This document shows, piece by piece, positions 10,330-44,024 of a stretch of DNA of 64,000 bases. How positions within the stretch are numbered: position 1 is the stretch's first letter; the number at the start of each line of letters is the position of its first letter. Origin of the DNA: Comamonadaceae bacterium (lineage in GTDB: Bacteria; Pseudomonadota; Gammaproteobacteria; Burkholderiales; Burkholderiaceae_C); contig CANJWZ010000017.1 of the NCBI GenBank assembly GCA_947478725.1, positions 5,901-69,900 on the forward strand, read 5' to 3'. A program made the translations under genes and the position numbers. The notes beneath the pieces were generated by a model. The model was not told where the DNA came from, searched no databases, and saw nothing but the letters and a program-made list of their open reading frames with translations.

Positions 10330-12645
10330 TCATGGCCTGCGCGGTGCGGCCAGCATGGCAGCCCATAACTTGGCTGGTGTGAAGGGCATGTCGATGGGCG
10401 GTGCGCCCACCTGGCGCAATGCGTCAGTGACTGCGTTGGCCAAGGCCGGTAACGAGCCCGAGCAACCCGACTCACCAACGCCTTTGGATCCCAACAAATT
10501 GAGCGCTGTGTGCACGGCATGGGTTTCGTGGTGAAAGTGGCGCACTAAACCGCCCGCACGCGGCATGGGGTAGTCCATGTAGGAGCCCGTCAACAGTTGG
10601 CCGGTTTCGCGGTCGTAAATGGCATGCTCGCCAAAGGCTTGCCCCATGCCCTGCACCACCCCGCCTTGCACTTGGCCCAGCACCTGCTCAGGTGAGATGA
10701 CCAGACCCACATCATCAACCGCCCAGTAGTGCGCCACCTCGGCCACGCCGGTGGCAATATGGATTTCGACCTCTGCGATATGGCAGCCATTGGGGAAGGT
10801 CATCCCAGAGGTGGCCTCACCCACGGCATGTACTTGGGCCGCTTGAGCGCCCAAGCTGGTGATCCAGTCGGCAAAGTGCAAACGGCGTTTTGCGCCACCC
10901 ACCTCTTGCCACTCACCTTTGACATGGGTGATGTCTGCTTCGACACATGTCCACAATGCCGCGATGGCGGGCTTGGTCTGGGTCATCAATTGTTGGCACA
11001 GGTTTTTGATCGCGCTGCCCACGCCGTACAAGGTGCGCGAGCCACCGGTGGTGTTGCCCACCAGGCCTTGTTGGGGCTCGCCAGCGAGATAGCGCACGGC
11101 ACTGGCGGGCAGGCCGATTTCGTTTTCCACAATTTGTGCAAAGCTGGTTTCGTGGCCTTGGCCCGAGGCACCGGTCAGGGCATGCAGCGACAGAACTCCT
11201 TGCGCGTCAAAGCTGCCACGCACTTGGTCTTTGGCAGCACCGCCTGGGCCAGACGCCTCCAAGTAATAAGCCAAGCCGCGTCCGAGCAAACAGCCGCGCT
11301 GTAAAGCATCGGCGCGGCGCTGGGCAAAGCCTTGGGGTTCGCTCATGCCGATGGCGTGGTCCATCACCGCCTCAAACTGGCCGCTGTCGTACACCGTTTG
11401 GTTTGCGGTAGTGTAGGGAAAGGCTTGGGGCGATATGAAGTTTTTCCGGCGAATGGCCAGGCCGTCCAGCCCGTGTTGGTGCGCAGCGTGGTCGATCAAG
11501 CGGTCGATGGCATAAGCAATATCAGGCCGCCCCGCGCCCCGGTAAGCAGACACCGGCACGGTGTTGGTGAAGTAGATGTGGGACGACATGTGAAGGGCCG
11601 GCACTTGATAGGCACCACCCATGGTGATGGACAGGTTGCGCGCCCCAATGTGGGTACTGTAGTAGACGTTATAGGCACCGACATCGACCTGATTTTCAAA
11701 CCGCATGGCCAAGATGTGGCCTAGCGCGTCCAGTGCAATATGCCCGTGCAAGCGCAGTGCACGGCCATGCCAATCGCTGACAAAAACCTCCGAGCGCGAG
11801 CCCACCCAACGCACCGGCTTTTTGAGTTGGCGCGTTGACAGCATCACCAAAAGATGCTCGCTGTAGGCCGTACCGCGCAGCCCAAACGAGCCTCCCACAT
11901 CATGGGTGTGCACTTCCATGCTTTCGTGCGGCCAACGCGTGATGGTTGCCAAAAACCCCGCCATGCCGCTTACCCCTTGGGTGGGGGTATGCACGTGAGT
12001 CACGCCCTTGGTCTCGTCATGCCAGGCCCATACCGTACGCGGCTCCATCGGCGAGCCCACCAAGCGTTGGCTCTCGATGGCGATATCGCTGACAAAATGG
12101 GCTTTGGCAAAGGCCGCATCCACGGCAGCGCGGTCGCCTGCTTCGAACTTGACCGAGGTGTTGCGCGGCGCTTTGGCGTGCAACTGCACCGCCCCAGCGG
12201 AGGTGGCGTCTTCAAAGGTGACCACCACGTCCAAGCTGTCATAGTCGATCTGCGCCAGTTCGGCTGCGTCTTGCGCTTGCAGGGCCGTGTCGGCCACCAC
12301 CCAGGCTACCGGTTGGCCAACGTACAAAACCTTGTCATGCGCCAACACCGGCATGTGGCACACCGTTTGCGGTTGTCCTTTCGGGTCATTGACCTGCACC
12401 ACATTAGGCAAGTCGGTAAAACCCGCGGCTTGCACGTCTTGTGCGGTCAGCACCTGTCGCACACCTGTGGCGGTATGCACCGCGCTCATGTCCAAGCGGG
12501 TGATGCGTGCATGCGCATGGGGCGAACGGATGACATGGCCAAAGAGCATGCCCGCCGCCTGTGCGTCGGCACTGAACTGACCGGTGCCTGTGATCAGACG
12601 TTGGTCTTCTTTGCGCAGCAAAGCGTGTGGGGTGACGGCGTTCAT
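10330..12645 (-). CDS. Xanthine dehydrogenase-family molybdopterin large subunit (CoxL form II-like)
   Basis: RKEDQRLITGTGQF, GGSFG, AYRGAGR active-site loop, GQGHETSFAQ, KGVGESG; start at MNAVTPH. Confidence 0.9.
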   Translation of the reverse strand: MNAVTPHALLRKEDQRLITGTGQFSADAQAAGMLFGHVIRSPHAHARITRLDMSAVHTATGVRQVLTAQDVQAAGFTDLPNVVQVNDPKGQPQTVCHMPVLAHDKVLYVGQPVAWVVADTALQAQDAAELAQIDYDSLDVVVTFEDATSAGAVQLHAKAPRNTSVKFEAGDRAAVDAAFAKAHFVSDIAIESQRLVGSPMEPRTVWAWHDETKGVTHVHTPTQGVSGMAGFLATITRWPHESMEVHTHDVGGSFGLRGTAYSEHLLVMLSTRQLKKPVRWVGSRSEVFVSDWHGRALRLHGHIALDALGHILAMRFENQVDVGAYNVYYSTHIGARNLSITMGGAYQVPALHMSSHIYFTNTVPVSAYRGAGRPDIAYAIDRLIDHAAHQHGLDGLAIRRKNFISPQAFPYTTANQTVYDSGQFEAVMDHAIGMSEPQGFAQRRADALQRGCLLGRGLAYYLEASGPGGAAKDQVRGSFDAQGVLSLHALTGASGQGHETSFAQIVENEIGLPASAVRYLAGEPQQGLVGNTTGGSRTLYGVGSAIKNLCQQLMTQTKPAIAALWTCVEADITHVKGEWQEVGGAKRRLHFADWITSLGAQAAQVHAVGEATSGMTFPNGCHIAEVEIHIATGVAEVAHYWAVDDVGLVISPEQVLGQVQGGVVQGMGQAFGEHAIYDRETGQLLTGSYMDYPMPRAGGLVRHFHHETHAVHTALNLLGSKGVGESGCSGSLPALANAVTDALRQVGAPPIDMPFTPAKLWAAMLAAPRRP

Positions 12646-35163: not shown

Positions 35164-36156
35164 TCAATTTTTAGCCAACTCAAGCGCCGGCCCATAAAAC
35201 AATTCCTCGGCGTTCACCCTGCGGGGCGATATGCCTTGCTCGTGGTGGTAGCGTGTGAAGGTGTCAAGAACGTGCTTGTTTTCGGCAAAGCCGTAGCTCC
35301 AGTAATCCTCGCCCATCAGGCGTTGGGTCACCTCCAGCTCGGCCACGCTCCATGGCAAGGTCACTGCAAGATGGCCAATCTGTTTGAGCTCTTCGGTTGC
35401 CAGTTTTTTGGCCTCAAGAAAGCCTTTGTAGATGCTCACAGGCAGCCACGGATGCTTGTCAACCAGGCTTTGACGGATGCCCACAACATGCATGGTCGGA
35501 AAAATCCGCGTCTTTGAAAAGTAATCCTGCTCGGCTTGTCTGAAGTCGGGAAAAAGCCGAACCACGTTGGGGTTGCCGTTCAAGAAACACGAGGGTGCCT
35601 TCGCGCCAAACACGGCATCGAGCTCGCCGCTTTCGAGTAACTGCGACAAGGTGGCATCACCGGGGATTTGCTCAACCTCAATGCCTTCAGGCAAGGTGAT
35701 GGGCGAGCGCTCCTGGCGGCCGGGTTGCTCCAGGCCGCCGCGACGCCAGCGTATGTCTTCAGGCCGCACGCCGTACTCATCAAGCAGCATGCCGCGTATC
35801 CACACATTGGCGGTGATCTGGTATTCAGGAATGCCGACCTTTTTGCCTTTCAGGTCTGACGGGCTACGGATGCCGCGGTCAGCGCGAACGTAAATGCCAG
35901 AGTGACGAAACGCGCGCGATAAAAACGCCGGAACCGCTACATACTTGGCTGTGGAGCGGGCAATATTGAGGGTGTGGCTGCTCAAGGACATTTCGCAAAC
36001 ATCGAATTCTTGGCCGCGAAAGACGCGGTGAAAAATCTCTTCAGGTTCCAGCGCAAAGGGAATCAGCGAACAGCCTTCCATCCTGACCCGTCCATCAAAA
36101 ATACCTTTGGTTCTGTCGTAGTTGCAGCAGCCAAGGCTGAGTTCAAGTGTCTTCAT
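35164..36156 (-). CDS. 4,5-dihydroxyphthalate decarboxylase-like protein (periplasmic-binding-protein fold)
   Basis: YDRT, EEIFHR, FDVCEMSLSS, FRHSGIY, FPTMHVV, YHHEQG. Confidence 0.75.
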   Translation of the reverse strand: MKTLELSLGCCNYDRTKGIFDGRVRMEGCSLIPFALEPEEIFHRVFRGQEFDVCEMSLSSHTLNIARSTAKYVAVPAFLSRAFRHSGIYVRADRGIRSPSDLKGKKVGIPEYQITANVWIRGMLLDEYGVRPEDIRWRRGGLEQPGRQERSPITLPEGIEVEQIPGDATLSQLLESGELDAVFGAKAPSCFLNGNPNVVRLFPDFRQAEQDYFSKTRIFPTMHVVGIRQSLVDKHPWLPVSIYKGFLEAKKLATEELKQIGHLAVTLPWSVAELEVTQRLMGEDYWSYGFAENKHVLDTFTRYHHEQGISPRRVNAEELFYGPALELAKN

Positions 36157-36270
36157 ATCTTCTTTTAAACGTCACGGTTGTTAATCTGCATAGTTGTTTT
36201 GTCAATCATCCCGTGGGGTGGAAGTTTTAAACACAGCCTGGCTAGCACGCAAGGCGCATGCCACAAAGCA

Positions 36271-36536
36271 TCACGTCTTTAACGCGTCGAATGCGCCAGC
36301 GATTTTAGACCCAGCCAAGCTGCAGGCCGCCAAATCCCCAGCCGTCAACCAGCGCCACTGCCCGGCCTTCAAATCCGCTGGTAAATCAAGCGAGCCAATC
36401 CGCGAGCGGTGCAAGCCACCAACGCCGCCCTCGCCTTCAACCCGGTTCCCCACCGCTGCAATCATGCGTTTGACCTGGTGGTATTTGCCTTCTGTCAGCG
36501 TCAGGCTCAATTGGTTGGGGCCAGTTTGAACGCAGG
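36271..36536 (-). pseudogene. Displaced 3' end of rsuA (direct-repeat copy)
   Basis: 36326-36536 matches 43229-43439 at 199 of 211 nt; continues to a different C-terminus (CSLAGSKIAGAFDALKT*). Confidence 0.92.
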
Positions 36537-37083
36537 TTGAGAGTGAATTGGAATCTGACCCCGATTCTTGTCATCGAGCATTCAGTGTTTGACTGGGGAT
36601 TGGCCTTGTTCTGCCCATCAAAAGCAGTAGAAACCGTTTTTTGCCTGTCTTCAACTATGTTTTAGGCCTTCAATCCAAGAGATATCCTCACGACCAGCTC
36701 CCGAATCAATAGCAGCCAACAATGAATTGGAATCTGACTAGACTTGTTTCAAATTGTTTTTATACTAGTGAAAGCTTTTCGGCACCGCTTTGCAAGATTC
36801 CGGCACTTGTTGAAACTTACCAAGCTGGCCGACTTTAGTTAAGCGTAGGGAAAAGCTTTCCATCGGCACCGTCTGCCAGATTGGGAGTTGACTGAGCTCC
36901 GCAACCCAAAGCGAGTAAAAAATACTTTTTTGCGTTTTTAATATGCTTTTGGCCTGTAACCAAATAGATACCAGATTGCAACGCTTCTTTATTGATAGCT
37001 AATCTGATTTTTTGACCTAACAATTGGAATAATTAGCTATGGCCTCGCTAATTGAAGGATTTCAAATTCGTTGTTTCTTCGTG

Positions 37084-37190
37084 CAAAGAGAATCGCCCGA
37101 TGAGCGAGCTCATCGGGCGATCGGTTATGGCACTTGGTTAGTGCTTAGTTGCCAAGACAAATTTAGTTGCCAGCGGCTTACTTGATAGAA
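37084..37190 (-). ncRNA. Predicted tracrRNA
   Basis: Anti-repeat TCTATCAAGTAAGCCGCTGGCA pairs with repeat positions 13-34 and GTCTTGG-C-AAC with positions 1-10; then TAAG, a GCACT/AGTGC hairpin, and a perfect 14-bp terminator stem at 37092-37121. Confidence 0.85.
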
Positions 37191-37195
37191 ACAGG

Positions 37196-37223
37196 ATGTT
37201 ACCACATGAAAAGTAAAAATCAA
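37196..37223 (-). promoter_or_regulatory. Putative tracrRNA promoter overlapping the cas9 start
   Basis: Minus strand TTGATT-16-TAACAT with an extended TG; predicted +1 near 37189-37190, the anti-repeat start. Confidence 0.55.
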
Positions 37224-40200
37224 ACTTCATACCGCTTGGGTATAGATATTGGTACGGGTTCAGTTGCATGGGCAGCTATGGCATTGGATGAAAAAAATCA
37301 GCCAACCCGCCTGATGGCCAGTGGCACGACGATCTTCGGCGAGCCAGTTCTTCCCAAAGAAATGAAGCTCAAAAACGAAGAGCGTCGTCGCGCGCGGCTC
37401 ATGAGAAGGCAGACAGAGCGCAAGCGGGAACGTATATCCAAAATCATGCACTTGGCTGCTGCGCTGCAAGTCACACCTGAAAAATTAGCCTCTGCTCTGC
37501 TTGCACACAAAGAAACGCAAACCCTTTGGCAACTACGCGTTAAAGCTTTGGATAACCGGGTATCGCTCGAAGAGTTTTTTCTAATCGTATTGCGACTGGC
37601 AAAGAACCGCGGTTACAACGGTGACGCCCCAAAACCTAACCAAAAAGGAGATCTTGGAAAAGTGGGCCAAGGTCTCGAAGCAACTAAAAAATTAGTTGAA
37701 AGTCTCAAGACTACACAAGAAATCCGTACTGTCTCCGAAGCAATATGGCTCAGCCAGGCGATGTTGCCGCTAAACCAGAAGAAGTTTCGCAAGCGGGTTG
37801 AAACTGGCACCTACGTCCTGCGGAGTGACATCAAAAATGAATTTGATCTCATACTAAAGGAGCAGTTAAAACATCACGACATGTTGGGCAAGCCTTTGGA
37901 TTTAATTTATCCCCCGCGAAAAGAATCATCCATAAAAACTGCGGATGGCAGGCCAAATCCGCACCCGGGCACACGATATTTCTGGGGGCACACGCCCGAA
38001 ACGATTGGCGAGGCCGTCAAAGTGGCCGTGTTCTACCAAAAGCCGCTGCAACCCTTCAAAGACAAAATTGGAACTTGTACTCTTGATAAAACCAGCTTGC
38101 GCGTGGTGGCGGCGCACCCAGCACATCAAGCATTCAGAATCGAAAAGTTATTGGCCGATCTGCGCTGGGGTGACTCAAAAAGCACAGATCGACTGACATC
38201 AGATCAAAAAAACTTCTTGCGAGAAAAACTCGAATTAACCGAAAACGCTAGCTTTTCAGCAATCTACAAGGAACTCGATAAAGCGGGTCTGATGCAGCCA
38301 GATGGATTGATTCTGAATTTTCATACGCCAAGACGCGACCATTTGAGAGGCAATACAACTCGCGCGCGCTTACGGGGCCTGAAACTCCTTGAAGCGTTTG
38401 AGTTACTGACTTTGCAGGAACAAAGCGACGTATTTCTTGCTCTTGCAGATGATGTGAATTCACCAGAAACCTGGCGGCACGACGGTGCACGAGATTTTGT
38501 CGTTTCAGAATATGGTGCGGCTGTCGCTAGTTTTATAGACTTTATTGCAGATTCAAAAGACGGTCTTGACCGCTTGCGCGCCATGGCTTTTGATGCAGGT
38601 CGCGTTAGTTATGGCGCACCCGCATTGGTGGCGCTAACCAAAGCTATGAGGGATGAAAATATTGATGAGCATTCAGCCATCAACAAGCTGTATCCGCATC
38701 ATCATAAAAAGCAAAATGCGACAGGCTACTTGGCGGAAGTTTCGACACTAGAACTGCGCTCGCCGGTAGTTGAGCACGCACTGCTCTACACGCGCCGCGA
38801 ACTGATGGCGGCTGTGAAGCGTCTTGGCCCACCGCAATCAATGGTAATCGAGCTGGCCAAGGAGGTTAAATCAACGCTGGAGCAGCGAGACAAAACGACA
38901 AGCAAGCAGCGGTATGAGGAGAGTCAAAACAAAAAAGCCAGAGAAGCCATTCTGGATGCGAATTGTAAAATTACCAACACCAGCATACTGCGGTACAAGT
39001 TGTGGAAAGAGCAAGCTGAACACTGCCCGTACAGCGGCAAAAGGATAGGCTCGGTTGCTGACGCAGTAAGCGGCACAAACTACGACATAGAGCACATCGT
39101 CCCCAAAAGACTCCACGGTGTTGGCAATCGTTTCGAAGAAATCGTACTCGCTTCGAAACAATTCAACACCCTAAAAGCTGGTCATGAAACGCCTTATTTA
39201 GCATCCAAGCGGGTTGGGAATACCGTGTGGAACTGGGCAGATACAGAACAGGCTTTGAAGTTTATTGAAAAAGAAAACAAACAGTTCATCAAAAAGGCCA
39301 AGCTCATCCGCGACAAGACTGAATTCAGAGTTGACGAGTTGGATGACGACGCCTTTGTAGACCGCCAACTGCAAGAGACGCAGTGGATTGGCCGGATTGT
39401 GCAAAACTGGTGTTCGCAACTTTGTAACGATGTAACGGTGGTACGCGGTGGCCTGACGGCAGAATTGCGCCGAGACTGGGGCTTCCATACTGTGCTTGAA
39501 CAGGTGCGCATCGCCGAGGGCAGGCACGGCAGTGAGAAAGCAAAAACGCTTTTCTATAAACCCAACCGTGTTGGTGAGTTGATATTTGACAAACGCTCAG
39601 ATCACAGACACCACCTGATTGACGCATGCGTCATTGCACTGTCTACAAGGCAAAACTACACAGATGCGGTGAAAGCCAGAAATGCCCGCGCTGCTGGCCG
39701 CAAAGCTAGTTATGCAGCCCCTGAATGCCCTATCCCCAGTTTGCGCGAACATCTGGTCAAGATGCTGAATGGCTACTGCGTATGGCATGCACCAGATCAC
39801 AAAGTGGCAGGTTTGATGTTTGATCAAATGCCATTCGGACTTGGTAAAGATGGCCAATCATTGTTCAAAAACAACACCAAAACCAGCAACAAGTTCAATC
39901 CCAAAATTGACAAGCTTATTGCCCATACAGATCGCCACGGCCGAAAACATCAGAAAGCTGTTTTAAAAAGCGAAGCTGCTTGTTTTCGCGTGACCGCAGC
40001 AGATGGAATTGAATCGGTAAATATTGCCCAGTTTATGCAAACGTACATGAGTGATGGGGTTCTCTACGTTCCAAGAAATGAGCGCCTGATATTCAAAGGC
40101 GATCTTTTAATCTTTAAAGATGAAGCCCAGGTTTACAAAGTCGCACAATTGAAAGAAGGTGAAGGTGTTTGCGCTGTACATGCTGTCGAAACTGCAACAT

Positions 40201-40328
40201 TTGACGATTTAAAAACAACTGGTCTGAACAGAAGATTTAGCAGGGTAAAAGACCTGCTTGAAGCGCTCGTTGTTTGTCACCCAATTGAACTCGCCATTCA
40301 CGCTAAAGCGCACAAACAGGCTCGATGA
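37206..40328 (+). CDS. cas9: Type II-C Cas9, 1040 aa
   Basis: RuvC-I LGIDIG, Arg-rich bridge helix, KNRGY, RuvC-II VIELAKE, HNH DIEHIVP...FNTLK, RuvC-III HRHHLIDA; followed by cas1 and cas2 only. Confidence 0.95.
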   Translation: MKSKNQTSYRLGIDIGTGSVAWAAMALDEKNQPTRLMASGTTIFGEPVLPKEMKLKNEERRRARLMRRQTERKRERISKIMHLAAALQVTPEKLASALLAHKETQTLWQLRVKALDNRVSLEEFFLIVLRLAKNRGYNGDAPKPNQKGDLGKVGQGLEATKKLVESLKTTQEIRTVSEAIWLSQAMLPLNQKKFRKRVETGTYVLRSDIKNEFDLILKEQLKHHDMLGKPLDLIYPPRKESSIKTADGRPNPHPGTRYFWGHTPETIGEAVKVAVFYQKPLQPFKDKIGTCTLDKTSLRVVAAHPAHQAFRIEKLLADLRWGDSKSTDRLTSDQKNFLREKLELTENASFSAIYKELDKAGLMQPDGLILNFHTPRRDHLRGNTTRARLRGLKLLEAFELLTLQEQSDVFLALADDVNSPETWRHDGARDFVVSEYGAAVASFIDFIADSKDGLDRLRAMAFDAGRVSYGAPALVALTKAMRDENIDEHSAINKLYPHHHKKQNATGYLAEVSTLELRSPVVEHALLYTRRELMAAVKRLGPPQSMVIELAKEVKSTLEQRDKTTSKQRYEESQNKKAREAILDANCKITNTSILRYKLWKEQAEHCPYSGKRIGSVADAVSGTNYDIEHIVPKRLHGVGNRFEEIVLASKQFNTLKAGHETPYLASKRVGNTVWNWADTEQALKFIEKENKQFIKKAKLIRDKTEFRVDELDDDAFVDRQLQETQWIGRIVQNWCSQLCNDVTVVRGGLTAELRRDWGFHTVLEQVRIAEGRHGSEKAKTLFYKPNRVGELIFDKRSDHRHHLIDACVIALSTRQNYTDAVKARNARAAGRKASYAAPECPIPSLREHLVKMLNGYCVWHAPDHKVAGLMFDQMPFGLGKDGQSLFKNNTKTSNKFNPKIDKLIAHTDRHGRKHQKAVLKSEAACFRVTAADGIESVNIAQFMQTYMSDGVLYVPRNERLIFKGDLLIFKDEAQVYKVAQLKEGEGVCAVHAVETATFDDLKTTGLNRRFSRVKDLLEALVVCHPIELAIHAKAHKQAR

Positions 40329-41245
40329 GGACTGAGCGCGTCATCGCCATTGAAAATCCCTGCCGCTTAAGCATTGATACAGCACGACTAAAAATAGATC
40401 GGGAAGGTAGCAGCACTTTTGTAGCAATCGTGGACATGGCGGTACTGGTCATTGATACCGTACAGATTGAGCTGACTGCCGGCGTCCTACGCGAACTGGC
40501 GCAATCGGATGTCGCAGTCATCGTTACTGATTCACGTCACTATCCGGTTGCGCTGGTTGCACCAGTCAAAGCACATACGCACACAGTCCGACGTCAACGC
40601 CTGCAAGCGGCACTTTCCCAAACGTTTGCAGACGTAATGTGGGCCACCACTATTCGCGCAAAGTTAAGAAATCAGGCGCGATTTTTATCAGCCCAAGGTA
40701 CAACTGCGCCGCTTGCCCGCCTAGAACGCATGGCAGCGACCATTGCGCCAGGTGACCCTGAAAATTTTGAGGCGCAAGGCGCAAAGCTTTATTGGAAAGA
40801 TGTTTTCAAAGACAGCTTCAAAAGAGCAAAGCAGGATGCGCCCGACACACGCAACGCAGCTCTGAACTTTGGTTATGCCATCTTGCGCGGACTGTTCAGC
40901 CGGTATATCGCCATCGCTGGTCTGTCACCCGTATTTGGGTTTGGGCATAGCAATTTTGAGAACCCTTGCTGTTTGGTCGATGACTTGATTGAGCCCTTTC
41001 GCCCATGCGTTGATGCGCTGGTAGCAACCGCTATCTATATCGAAAATGAATTCGATTCCAAGGCCAAGAAAACAATGCTCAGACTATTGGAATGCGAGGC
41101 GTTGTTTGAGCGTAAAGATGTGCAGGTTCGCTACAGAATGCACGCGGCAGTATCTGAAACCGTAAACGCTTATGTCAGAGCGCTGGAGACGCAATGTGAA
41201 AACGCAATGGCTTTCCCAAGCGGTTTCGTCCTCCCACTTGGCTGA
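40325..41245 (+). CDS. cas1: Type II Cas1
   Basis: ENFEAQGAKLYW, RNAALNFGYAILR, GH...LVDDLIEPFRP; ATGA overlap with cas9. Confidence 0.95.
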   Translation: MRTERVIAIENPCRLSIDTARLKIDREGSSTFVAIVDMAVLVIDTVQIELTAGVLRELAQSDVAVIVTDSRHYPVALVAPVKAHTHTVRRQRLQAALSQTFADVMWATTIRAKLRNQARFLSAQGTTAPLARLERMAATIAPGDPENFEAQGAKLYWKDVFKDSFKRAKQDAPDTRNAALNFGYAILRGLFSRYIAIAGLSPVFGFGHSNFENPCCLVDDLIEPFRPCVDALVATAIYIENEFDSKAKKTMLRLLECEALFERKDVQVRYRMHAAVSETVNAYVRALETQCENAMAFPSGFVLPLG

Positions 41246-41291
41246 TAACGGCGAGAACGATGGCTACGACCCTGGTCCATTTTTCCGCACC

Positions 41292-41603
41292 ATGTGGCTA
41301 ATCTGCGCTTTCGATTTGCCAACCGACAGCAAGCTTGCGCGTCGCAGATACACGCAATATCGAAAACTATTATTGACCCACGGATTTGATCATTTGCAGC
41401 ACTCGGTGTATTGCAGGCACTTCCCTAATTTTGAACAAGCCCGAAATATGGCAACGCGCATGGGTACAGCAACACCGGAAGACGGAAAGGTTGATTTTTT
41501 GTTTTTGACAGACAAGCAACTAGGTCTTACGCTAAGTTTTCTTGGCCCCAAGGCACGTGATGAACCCTTATTTGAAGAGCCCGAGCAGGGTGCCTTGTTC
41601 TAA
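41292..41603 (+). CDS. cas2: Cas2
   Basis: MWLICAFDLP, GFDHLQHSVY; an in-frame TTG at 41238 is an alternative start. Confidence 0.9.
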   Translation: MWLICAFDLPTDSKLARRRYTQYRKLLLTHGFDHLQHSVYCRHFPNFEQARNMATRMGTATPEDGKVDFLFLTDKQLGLTLSFLGPKARDEPLFEEPEQGALF

Positions 41604-41608
41604 TACGG

Positions 41609-41646
41609 AAACTAAAATCCCCGCTAAATCAACGACTTAGCGGGGA
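41609..41646 (-). terminator. Terminator for the minus-strand array transcript, within the leader
   Basis: Perfect 10-bp stem TCCCCGCTAA/TTAGCGGGGA; followed by TTTTAGTTT on the minus strand. Confidence 0.7.
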
Positions 41647-41649
41647 CAT

Positions 41650-43073
41650 AGTCTATCAAGTAAGCCGCCGACAGAGCCTTGGAACAATGGTCTTGAGGTG
41701 AAGGTCACGCCTGTCAGTCTATCAAGTAAGCCGCCGACAGAGCCTTGGAACGGCAGAGGGTGTTCATGCCACACCTCCAATAGTCTATCAAGTAAGCCGC
41801 CGACAGAGCCTTGGAACGGTAAAGGGTGTTCATGCTGCACCTCCAATAGTCTATCAAGTAAGCCGCCGACAGAGCCTTGGAACTCCTCCTCCTGCAACAA
41901 CTAGATAGTCAACAGTCTATCAAGTAAGCCGCCGACAGAGCCTTGGAACGGCAAGTACGATGTGGTGGCAACCACTGGCAGTCTATCAAGTAAGCCGCCG
42001 ACAGAGCCTTGGAACAGCAATCTTTAACCCAGCCACGTTTGCCGGAGTCTATCAAGTAAGCCGCCGACAGAGCCTTGGAACCAGTGGAAAAGAGATGCTC
42101 TCCCTGACCTACAGTCTATCAAGTAAGCCGCCGACAGAGCCTTGGAACAACGCGAGGGCGATGTAGGCACTTACCACTAGTCTATCAAGTAAGCCGCCGA
42201 CAGAGCCTTGGAACACCGGGCGCAGCGGGTTGTCTCATGGTTCAAGTCTATCAAGTAAGCCGCCGACAGAGCCTTGGAACAAGTTCCTCTTGCGAGAATG
42301 TCTTGCTTGGAGTCTATCAAGTAAGCCGCCGACAGAGCCTTGGAACGTGTTGGGTGCCAGGTCCGCCGTGGTGGCTAGTCTATCAAGTAAGCCGCCGACA
42401 GAGCCTTGGAACCTGGCGCGTGACATTGACAAAAACGCGACCAGTCTATCAAGTAAGCCGCCGACAGAGCCTTGGAACCTGCGTCAATGGCGTAGCGCAC
42501 GTCACCAAAAGTCTATCAAGTAAGCCGCCGACAGAGCCTTGGAACCCGTGGTGGGCGAGCTGGTCTGACTTCAAGAGTCTATCAAGTAAGCCGCCGACAG
42601 AGCCTTGGAACAATAGCTGGAAATGGCGGTGCAGGACTTACAGTCTATCAAGTAAGCCGCCGACAGAGCCTTGGAACGAGGGCTTCACGGTGGGGTCAGA
42701 GTGATTGAGTCTATCAAGTAAGCCGCCGACAGAGCCTTGGAACTTTGTGAGCTTTTTTGACCAGCTTGAACTCAGTCTATCAAGTAAGCCGCCGACAGAG
42801 CCTTGGAACAGGGCGGGCGGGCTTTGGGTGAGCAGCGCAAGTCTATCAAGTAAGCCGCCGACAGAGCCTTGGAACGGCGGCGACGGTGACGATGTGGCCT
42901 TTTCGAGTCTATCAAGTAAGCCGCCGACAGAGCCTTGGAACTGACATGCACGTCTCCTTTCCTAGCGCCCAAGTCTATCAAGTAAGCCGCCGACAGAGCC
43001 TTGGAACATCGCTGGCATAGCGCCGTCACTGGGCGAGAGTCTATCAAGTAAGCCGCCGACAGAGCCTTGGAAC
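41650..43073 (-). CRISPR. CRISPR array, 22 identical 36-bp repeats and 21 spacers (30 nt; two of 31 nt)
   Basis: Repeat on + is AGTCTATCAAGTAAGCCGCCGACAGAGCCTTGGAAC; crRNA sense is GTTCCAAGGCTCTGTCGGCGGCTTACTTGATAGACT. Orientation inferred from the 5' GTT, the anti-repeat and the terminator. Confidence 0.98.
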
Positions 43074-43206
43074 AGTGACTTCAAACGTATGCGTCCGGCT
43101 ACCACACATTGCGGGAATGCTGACATCCAGAGATAGTGTGAGCGATAAACATCATGCACACCATGGCGAGCGAGACTCGCACCACCCAAGCCCCAAAACG
43201 TCAGTT

Positions 43207-43953
43207 CTACTTCCCAGAGCCCGCAATAGCCGCCAAATCCCCACCCGTCAACCAGCGCCACTGCCCGGCCTTCAAATCCGCTGGTAAATCAAGCGAGCCT
43301 ATCCGCGAACGGTGCAAGCCTCCCACGCCGCCTTCGCCTTCAACGCGATTGCCAACCGCTGCAATCATGCGTTTGACCTGGTGGTATTTGCCTTCTGTCA
43401 GCGTCAGGGTCAATTGGTTGGGGCCAGTTTGCACGCAGGCTGCGGCTTTGACGGGCTTGGGGTCGTCGTCCAGCACCACGCCGCTCAGCAGTTTTTGCAC
43501 CTGCTTGTCGTCTACCGCGTGCTTGGCCGTGACCTCGTACACCTTGGGCACATGGTGTTTGGGTGAGCTCATGCGGTGGATGAACTTGCCGTCGTCTGAC
43601 AGCAGCAGCAGGCCTGTGGTGTCCTGGTCGAGCCGCCCAACCGCTTGCACGCCCGCTGCAGCGCCGCCGCCGCGCTGGCGAATGGGCGCGGGCAACAAGG
43701 TGTAGATGCTCGGGTAGGTGCTGGGCTTTTGCGAGCATTCGTAGCCTGCGGGTTTGTGCAGCATCAAATAGGCTTTTTCGTGGTACTGCCAGTCAACGCC
43801 CTGCACTTTGAAGTTCAGGCCCGCTGCCGCAAAATCAGCCGTTGGGTCATCGACCACCACGCCCGCCACCACCACCAGGCCTTGCTGCACCAGCCCCGAG
43901 CAAACGCGCCGCGTGCCAAAGCCTTGAGAAAAAAGAATGTCTTGAAGTTGCAT
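43207..43953 (-). CDS. rsuA: 16S rRNA pseudouridine synthase, RsuA family
   Basis: S4 domain, LHKPAGY, VGRLDQDTTGLLL, TEGKYHQVKRM. Confidence 0.92.
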   Translation of the reverse strand: MQLQDILFSQGFGTRRVCSGLVQQGLVVVAGVVVDDPTADFAAAGLNFKVQGVDWQYHEKAYLMLHKPAGYECSQKPSTYPSIYTLLPAPIRQRGGGAAAGVQAVGRLDQDTTGLLLLSDDGKFIHRMSSPKHHVPKVYEVTAKHAVDDKQVQKLLSGVVLDDDPKPVKAAACVQTGPNQLTLTLTEGKYHQVKRMIAAVGNRVEGEGGVGGLHRSRIGSLDLPADLKAGQWRWLTGGDLAAIAGSGK

Positions 43954-44024
43954 GGCCGATATTGTCGCCGCACGCTAACCGGCGCAAAGCGTGAAAATAG
44001 CGCTTCTCGCATCACAAAGATTTC

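Follow-up and report, generated by a model that had tools for sequence, protein, structure and literature searches.

The short stretch of DNA immediately upstream of cas9 in the region analysed here (the window, 64,000 nt in length, from a Polaromonas-like betaproteobacterium) raises the question of whether it encodes a tracrRNA and, if so, what is to be made of the oversized, one-sided bulge that the RNA appears to form when paired with the CRISPR repeat. An earlier note on this DNA had proposed, from pairing the bases by hand, both a tracrRNA and an unusually large asymmetric bulge within it. ORFs and protein family matches place the stretch in a cas9-cas1-cas2-array locus with no csn2 and no cas4, laid out as follows:

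37084 to 37190, minus strand: predicted tracrRNA gene, about 105 to 107 nt (from co-folding with the repeat, fold z-score and homologous RNA in 19 related loci)
37206 to 40328, plus strand: cas9, 1,040 aa (TIGR01865, E = 2.5e-105; Pfam RuvC_III, Cas9_a and HNH_4)
40325 to 41245, plus strand: cas1 (TIGR03639 cas1_NMENI, E = 4e-70)
41172 to 41603, plus strand: cas2 ORF (Cas2, PF09827)
41617 to 41647, minus strand: intrinsic terminator between the array and cas2, which fits minus-strand transcription of the array
41650 to 43074, minus strand: CRISPR array of 22 identical 36-nt repeats with 30- to 31-nt spacers

The cas9 and tracrRNA genes lie on opposite strands and are transcribed divergently, with 15 nt separating the tracrRNA gene, upstream, from the cas9 start codon. 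Judged by its gene content (cas9, cas1 and cas2 only) and its compact Cas9 of 1,040 aa, the locus is a type II-C CRISPR-Cas system. Its Cas9 is distant from those with solved structures, the best PDB sequence matches having E values of about 1e-30 to 1e-33 (best, 4.5e-33). The array repeat, 36 nt in length, reads AGTCTATCAAGTAAGCCGCCGACAGAGCCTTGGAAC on the plus strand and GUUCCAAGGCUCUGUCGGCGGCUUACUUGAUAGACU in the crRNA sense. Two adjacent spacers of the array, numbers 2 and 3 (window positions 41752 to 41847), are near-identical variants of each other, GGCAGAGGGTGTTCATGCCACACCTCCAAT and GGTAAAGGGTGTTCATGCTGCACCTCCAAT. The entire tracrRNA-cas9-cas1-cas2-array cassette is flanked by two 214-nt direct repeats that are 94% identical (36326 to 36539 and 43229 to 43442).

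Pairing between the two RNAs was tested by ViennaRNA co-folding of the repeat (sense orientation, GUUCCAAGG...GAUAGACU) with the minus strand from 37190 to 37084. The predicted complex has an energy of -79.6 kcal/mol and 32 intermolecular pairs. The elements of the gene, in the direction of transcription and starting with its putative promoter, are the following:

37196 to 37204, minus strand: extended -10 box TGgTAACAT of the putative tracrRNA promoter, with TAnnnT conserved in 19 loci
37168 to 37189, minus strand: upper-stem strand of the anti-repeat, partner of repeat positions 13 to 34, four of its pairs with compensatory changes
37159 to 37167, minus strand: oversized tracrRNA-side loop ACUAAAUUU, opposite repeat positions 11 and 12 (UC)
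37148 to 37158, minus strand: lower-stem strand of the anti-repeat (GUCUUGG, a bulged C at 37151, then AAC), partner of repeat positions 1 to 10
37130 to 37144, minus strand: nexus-like hairpin GCACU-AACCA-AGUGC, four of its five pairs with compensatory changes across relatives
37091 to 37122, minus strand: terminator hairpin of 14 bp, followed by the tail UCUCUUUG at 37084 to 37090

The co-fold, a check that the earlier note had itself suggested, reproduced the hand-drawn structure base for base. Repeat positions 13 to 34 form 22 contiguous base pairs, two of them G-U, with tracrRNA positions 37189 to 37168; the UC at repeat positions 11 and 12 then faces the nine bases from 37167 to 37159 in a 2x9 internal loop. 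Below the loop, repeat positions 4 to 10 form 7 bp with GUCUUGG (37158 to 37152), one of them G-U, and after the single bulged C the duplex is closed by 3 bp between GUU of the repeat and AAC (37150 to 37148). UAA leads into the nexus-like hairpin, with 5 bp between GCACU and AGUGC and the loop AACCA (37144 to 37130), and one 14-bp hairpin (37122 to 37091) ends the RNA; the first pair of this terminator is a G-U, which corrects the drawing in that detail. The U tract that follows is weak in the window (UCUCUUU), and the relatives carry UUUUCUUU.

In the ensemble of duplex structures, the pairs that flank the large loop have probabilities of 0.92 to 0.99, and the 107-nt RNA folded alone gives a z-score of -6.1 against shuffles. 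Within the window, the 22-mer of the anti-repeat, at up to three mismatches, matched nothing but the 22 repeats and 37168 to 37189, where shuffled sequence leads one to expect 0 occurrences; no second anti-repeat was found elsewhere in the whole genome. A search for tracrRNA families of Rfam within 36000 to 44000 returned no match, even at E values of up to 10.

The order of the modules (anti-repeat, hairpins, terminator) is that of a tracrRNA only on the minus strand, and the array would then also have to be transcribed from the minus strand. Read in the crRNA sense, every repeat finishes with TGATAGACT, which resembles an extended -10 box (TGnTAnnnT) and is kept in diverged repeats of the related loci, namely as TGCTAACCT in L005, TGCTACAAT in L006 and TGTTAGACT in L008. 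These boxes, together with the minus-strand terminator near cas2, probably reflect crRNA promoters located inside the repeats, in the manner of Neisseria.

The tracrRNA appears to have a promoter of its own. The hexamer TAACAT (37201 to 37196), preceded by TGG, lies 7 nt upstream of the anti-repeat core, and a TAnnnT hexamer is present 5 to 9 nt upstream of the core in all 19 related loci. Transcription likely starts at 37189 to 37190, 7 nt past the -10 box. No -35 box was identified for this promoter, whose -35 region would overlap cas9 codons. The distance from the -10 box to the cas9 start codon is 4 nt in the window, and 4 to 5 nt in the 15 loci of the large-loop clade and L013 (an intermediate relative, see below) in which the codon was located. 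The ribosome-binding site of cas9, AGGA (about 37191 to 37194, plus strand), sits between the -10 box and the start of the tracrRNA, so that any cas9 mRNA would overlap the tracrRNA in antisense, at least over its 5' end. The tracrRNA and cas9 promoters probably compete.

Public data contain about 30 relatives of this Cas9, at 42 to 89% identity and nearly all of them metagenomic. DNA was recovered for more than 20 of the related loci, and a homologous RNA gene was found at the same place in every one; the 17 with known repeats each co-fold into the same modules. Across 14 distinct repeat/tracrRNA versions, 98.2% of the cells of the pairing alignment form standard pairs, and compensatory changes are seen at eight base pairs, of which four belong to the upper stem and the other four to the nexus, with its five pairs; the earlier note had suggested such a comparison with the tracrRNAs of related loci as a check. 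None of 500 shuffles reached the observed values, and sliding the partner strand by 1 to 3 columns left pairing at 25 to 46%. Pairing is kept in 98.6% of cells in the lower stem, with one-sided changes only, and covariation is for this reason silent on that stem. A strong terminator hairpin occupies the same place in every relative, and its stem sequence differs between subgroups.

Conservation of the RNA can be gauged from five loci (L003, L004, L021, L022 and L024) whose Cas9 proteins are 71 to 87% identical and whose cas9 DNA is mostly 60 to 85% identical: their tracrRNAs differ at only 0 to 5 of the 98 nt outside the loop (95 to 100% identity), the RNA outside the loop being far more conserved than the Cas9 protein it serves. 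The cas9 genes of two of these loci, L004 and L021, are 95 to 100% identical at the DNA level from about +800 to +2700, 65 to 88% identical at the 5' end and 45 to 54% identical from about +2800 to +3200, a pattern that looks like that of mosaic genes produced by recombination. A further observation concerns L008 (Cas9 26% identical), where the anti-repeat lies between cas2 and the array (about 10478 to 10511, minus strand) and not upstream of cas9; its position implies that the tracrRNA gene has moved within the wider Cas9 group.

Locus context, strand logic, the conserved promoter box, the nexus and terminator, and the compensatory changes all bear out the original call of a tracrRNA. On these sequence comparisons, the minus strand from 37190 to 37084 very probably encodes the real tracrRNA of a working type II-C locus.

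How unusual is its bulge? As a yardstick, we folded in the same way 34 of the 79 biochemically validated Cas9 guide RNAs listed in Supplementary Data 2 of Gasiunas et al. 2020 (PMC7606464), a sample comprising one guide of clade I, seven of clades II and III, all those listed of clades VI to IX, and two of clade X, their structures being predicted rather than solved. Within repeat bases 1 to 16, i.e., the part that is retained in working sgRNAs, neither side of any loop in the 34 exceeded 3 nt, and loops larger than 3 nt were found only beyond position 18, in the distal duplex. The 2x9 loop of the window RNA lies at repeat position 11. The description of the bulge as unusually large and asymmetric thus stands, as does, for the 34-guide sample, the statement that characterised duplexes usually have small bulges; the predicted loop is about three times the size of the largest one among the 34 tested Cas9 guides examined. 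The minimum-energy fold of the S. pyogenes duplex did not reproduce its known 2x4 bulge. Variation of the bulges from clade to clade, and their absence from clade X, have been described previously (Gasiunas et al. 2020, PMC7606464), and the same general point on bulge variation was made by Dooley et al.

The proposal that the RNA represents a distinct scaffold also fits what was found: it has no match in Rfam, its sequence is in no paper or catalogue entry that we found, and the closest tested guide, Ghc1, comes with a Cas9 that is only 27% identical over its N-terminal 388 aligned residues. We found no paper containing the repeat or anti-repeat string and no literature combining Polaromonas, Cas9 and tracrRNA, and that string is absent from the supplements of Gasiunas et al. 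2020.

The large loop is a property of the lineage rather than of this locus alone. It is present on the tracrRNA side in all relatives for which Cas9 is at least 57% identical and the repeat is known; their minimum free energy structures leave 6 to 10 nt unpaired on the tracrRNA side and 0 to 3 nt on the repeat side, and the insert measures 7 to 11 nt when anchored on the conserved flanks. The remaining relatives, in order of decreasing Cas9 identity, were as follows:

L027, 50% identical, repeat unknown: comparable insert, UCAAAUACAA
L013, 45% identical: 5-nt bulge ACUAA, four pairs, then a 2x2 loop
L016, 44% identical, repeat unknown: tracrRNA without the insert
L005 and L017, 41 to 42% identical, repeats known: 2x1 loop
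L006 and L008 (outgroups), 25 to 28% identical: loops of at most 3 nt

Since the distant relatives and the outgroups have small loops, the large loop is a derived, tracrRNA-side insertion at the position of the canonical bulge.

Thirteen versions of the loop are known, of which 11 carry the full 7- to 11-nt insert. In the five loci with nearly invariant tracrRNAs mentioned above, the loops (ACAAAAAUUU, ACAGAAUUUUU, AAUUUUUAU, AAGAAAUAU and AUAAAUUUAU) are 9 to 11 nt long and unrelated in sequence. G+C content is 14% over the 11 versions, compared to 48% for the tracrRNA and cas9. By this comparison, only length (7 to 11 nt) and A/U-richness are conserved in the insert, which is hypervariable in sequence within an RNA that is otherwise almost invariant.

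The clade itself is rare. Four of 401 genomes of the bacterial family matched at E values up to 1e-50, three of them belonging to the clade and one, at 31% identity, lying outside it. Among 200 close relatives, 2 gave a match at E values up to 1e-100; no match was obtained in 400 additional genomes of the order, and a metagenome scan for more members added nothing useful.

An insertion in Cas9 that might match the insert in the RNA was also sought. The large-loop clade and L013, the intermediate, carry a four-residue insertion, GDLG (148 to 151), that the small-loop relatives lack; the second difference that tracks the loop is a deletion of 8 residues close to position 199, and these are the sole Cas9 differences that do so. 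Both lie in the N-terminal part of the protein, in what would be the region of the recognition lobe. Because the insertion and deletion represent a single phylogenetic event, they are suggestive at most of a link between Cas9 and the loop.

Comparison with known systems places the RNA within a familiar type. The bulge of the S. pyogenes sgRNA is reportedly 2x4 with more bases on the tracrRNA side, and is said to be functionally required and to contribute to orthogonality. As in the window RNA, it is an asymmetric internal loop between the lower and upper stems with the longer side contributed by the tracrRNA; however, the S. pyogenes system is of type II-A, and its loop, which has a conserved sequence, is not half as large. 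The window RNA falls outside the Streptococcus-type tracrRNA family of Rfam, to which it has no match. The bulge and nexus are both said to govern the exchangeability of guides, and orthogonality of the scaffold to common Cas9s, as the earlier note had suggested, is plausible on such general grounds.

The resemblance to the II-C systems of Neisseria meningitidis (Nme1/Nme2) is closer. These share the cas9-cas1-cas2 locus with an array read toward cas2 (in the window, probably so), a Cas1 of the NMENI subtype, repeats with GUU at the start and an extended -10 box (TGnTAnnnT) at the end, an internal loop about 9 to 12 nt into the repeat, and the same tracrRNA modules (anti-repeat, AAG junction, nexus hairpin and terminator); their crRNA promoters are reportedly embedded in the repeats. 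At the level of sequence, the window RNA has every hallmark of a Neisseria-type II-C tracrRNA. It differs in its position, upstream of cas9 in divergent orientation and 15 nt from the start codon, and in having one 3' hairpin instead of two, and the window Cas9 is only distantly related to that of N. meningitidis. The loops differ as well: in Nme2, folded in the same way, they are symmetric and small (2x2 plus 2x2; PMC7606464 Supplementary Data 2), in contrast to the 2x9 loop found here, with its excess entirely on the tracrRNA side.

The most similar tested guide that we found is that of Ghc1 Cas9 (clade IX, from a Crystal Geyser groundwater metagenome; PMC7606464). Its repeat (GUUCCGG...CUAGACU) resembles the window repeat (GUUCCAAGG...GAUAGACU) at both ends. 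In both guides a single bulge on the tracrRNA side comes three or four pairs into the duplex, and both have an AAC-AAG junction and a short nexus, with a single terminator. The Cas9 proteins are of nearly the same length (1,038 aa in Ghc1, 1,040 aa here), with 27% identity over the N-terminal 388 aligned residues. Unlike in the window RNA, the loops of the Ghc1 guide are only 1x2 and 1x1.

Overall, the data are best explained by a tracrRNA gene of a type II-C CRISPR-Cas9 locus that carries a lineage-specific insertion on the tracrRNA side, read as a flexible, unpaired spacer; from the sequence data we put the probability of this explanation at roughly 0.85. A different role for the insert would be to cap a hairpin internal to the tracrRNA (GGCAA / loop / UUGUC, extended by GCCG:UGGC and AGU:ACU), which could keep the lower-stem strand hidden until invasion by the repeat, starting at the single-stranded 5' end, or could remain in the complex as a three-way junction. 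All large-loop members indeed have a free tracrRNA that folds in this way, two arm positions that are free of repeat constraint show compensatory changes in L012 (UA/UA) and L027 (UU/AA), and in L013 this place is taken by a different stem of 5 bp; moreover, an A-to-U change in L012 and L021 breaks the pair with repeat U13. The arms are, however, broken in L021 and L023 and partly so in L022 and L024, and the hairpin is only marginally better than in shuffled sequences (z = -1.4; 12 of 200 shuffles as good). Since most of its stem consists of bases already fixed by pairing with the repeat, its conservation adds no independent information. We therefore regard a self-hairpin as an unlikely function of the insert, and its persistence as a three-way junction in the duplex was rejected, this structure being 10.7 kcal/mol worse and its pairs having probabilities below 0.003. 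A palindromic repeat as the source of the hairpin was also rejected, as the repeats alone are unstructured (z = 0.3 and 0.8).

The insert might, on the other hand, be an A/T patch kept for a role at the DNA level or on the sense strand, as part of the cas9 promoter or leader, with the RNA loop as a by-product. The patch lies 39 to 47 bp upstream of the cas9 start codon on the plus strand and is strongly A/T-biased within a window of 56% G+C. As the tracrRNA gene fills the space upstream of cas9, the cas9 promoter must lie in or beyond that gene, and the location of the cas9 ribosome-binding site between the tracrRNA -10 box and start is also in keeping with such a role. Against it, the plus strand of the loop provides no consistent TAnnnT across the 13 versions and no -35 at a suitable spacing, a promoter scan was negative at the loop, and the hypervariable sequence argues against a defined protein-binding site. 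A DNA-level role is accordingly very unlikely, and a plus-strand cas9 promoter in the loop was discarded as the main explanation for want of a consistent -10 or -35 across the 13 versions. Another candidate -10 element for cas9, a TGATAGnnn box on the plus strand of the anti-repeat, was rejected because the conserved final T is missing. That the whole stretch is just a decayed CRISPR repeat or a chance match, with no functional RNA gene, is exceedingly improbable: the chance expectation is 0, the promoter box, nexus and terminator are conserved and accompanied by compensatory changes, and the RNA hardly varies even where the cas9 DNA of two loci is no more than 60 to 85% identical.

Some of these elements could be combined in a regulatory scheme that we consider quite unlikely. 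In the free tracrRNA, a self-hairpin capped by the A/U insert would keep the Cas9-critical lower-stem strand out of reach, and the tracrRNA gene, being antisense to the only possible site of the cas9 leader, would link the amount of tracrRNA to cas9 expression, through antisense pairing or through promoter occlusion at the divergent start with its 4-nt spacing, the hypervariable loop serving to tune the switch. If true, this coupling would be a II-C counterpart of tracrRNA-based autoregulation.

According to the preferred reading, i.e., a tracrRNA with a flexible, unpaired spacer, the RNA would be transcribed from its own predicted promoter and end at the 14-bp terminator hairpin. Its 5' 42 nt would pair with the CRISPR repeat, itself transcribed from the minus strand, probably by way of Neisseria-like promoters inside the individual repeats, and the nexus hairpin and terminator would form the handle bound by Cas9. 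Placed between the 10-nt lower stem and the 22-bp upper stem, the insertion would turn the usual bulge of 1 to 3 nt into the 2x9 loop. Because the insert keeps only its length and A/U-richness while its sequence drifts, we read it as a flexible unpaired spacer and not as a sequence-specific element, and the Cas9 of this clade may either tolerate it or grip its backbone without reading the sequence. The nine loop bases, unpaired in the predicted duplex, would also be unpaired and exposed in the Cas9 complex. Thermodynamic folding ignores Cas9, and the nine bases could make non-canonical or tertiary contacts in the protein; the strong A/U bias in itself indicates some constraint on the loop, so that reading it as a passive spacer may be incomplete.

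The general understanding of how Cas9 systems work is unchanged by these data, which describe an unusual variant of a well-known RNA and no new type of system. What they add is a guide-RNA architecture outside the range of tested Cas9 orthologs, from a rare and uncharacterised II-C clade, and a dated example of the evolution of the bulge module, from a small loop through a 5-nt bulge to 7 to 11 nt. The 13 variable loops in an otherwise frozen RNA point to a position that would tolerate arbitrary A/U sequence, and that might serve as an insertion site for aptamers or as a handle for orthogonality.
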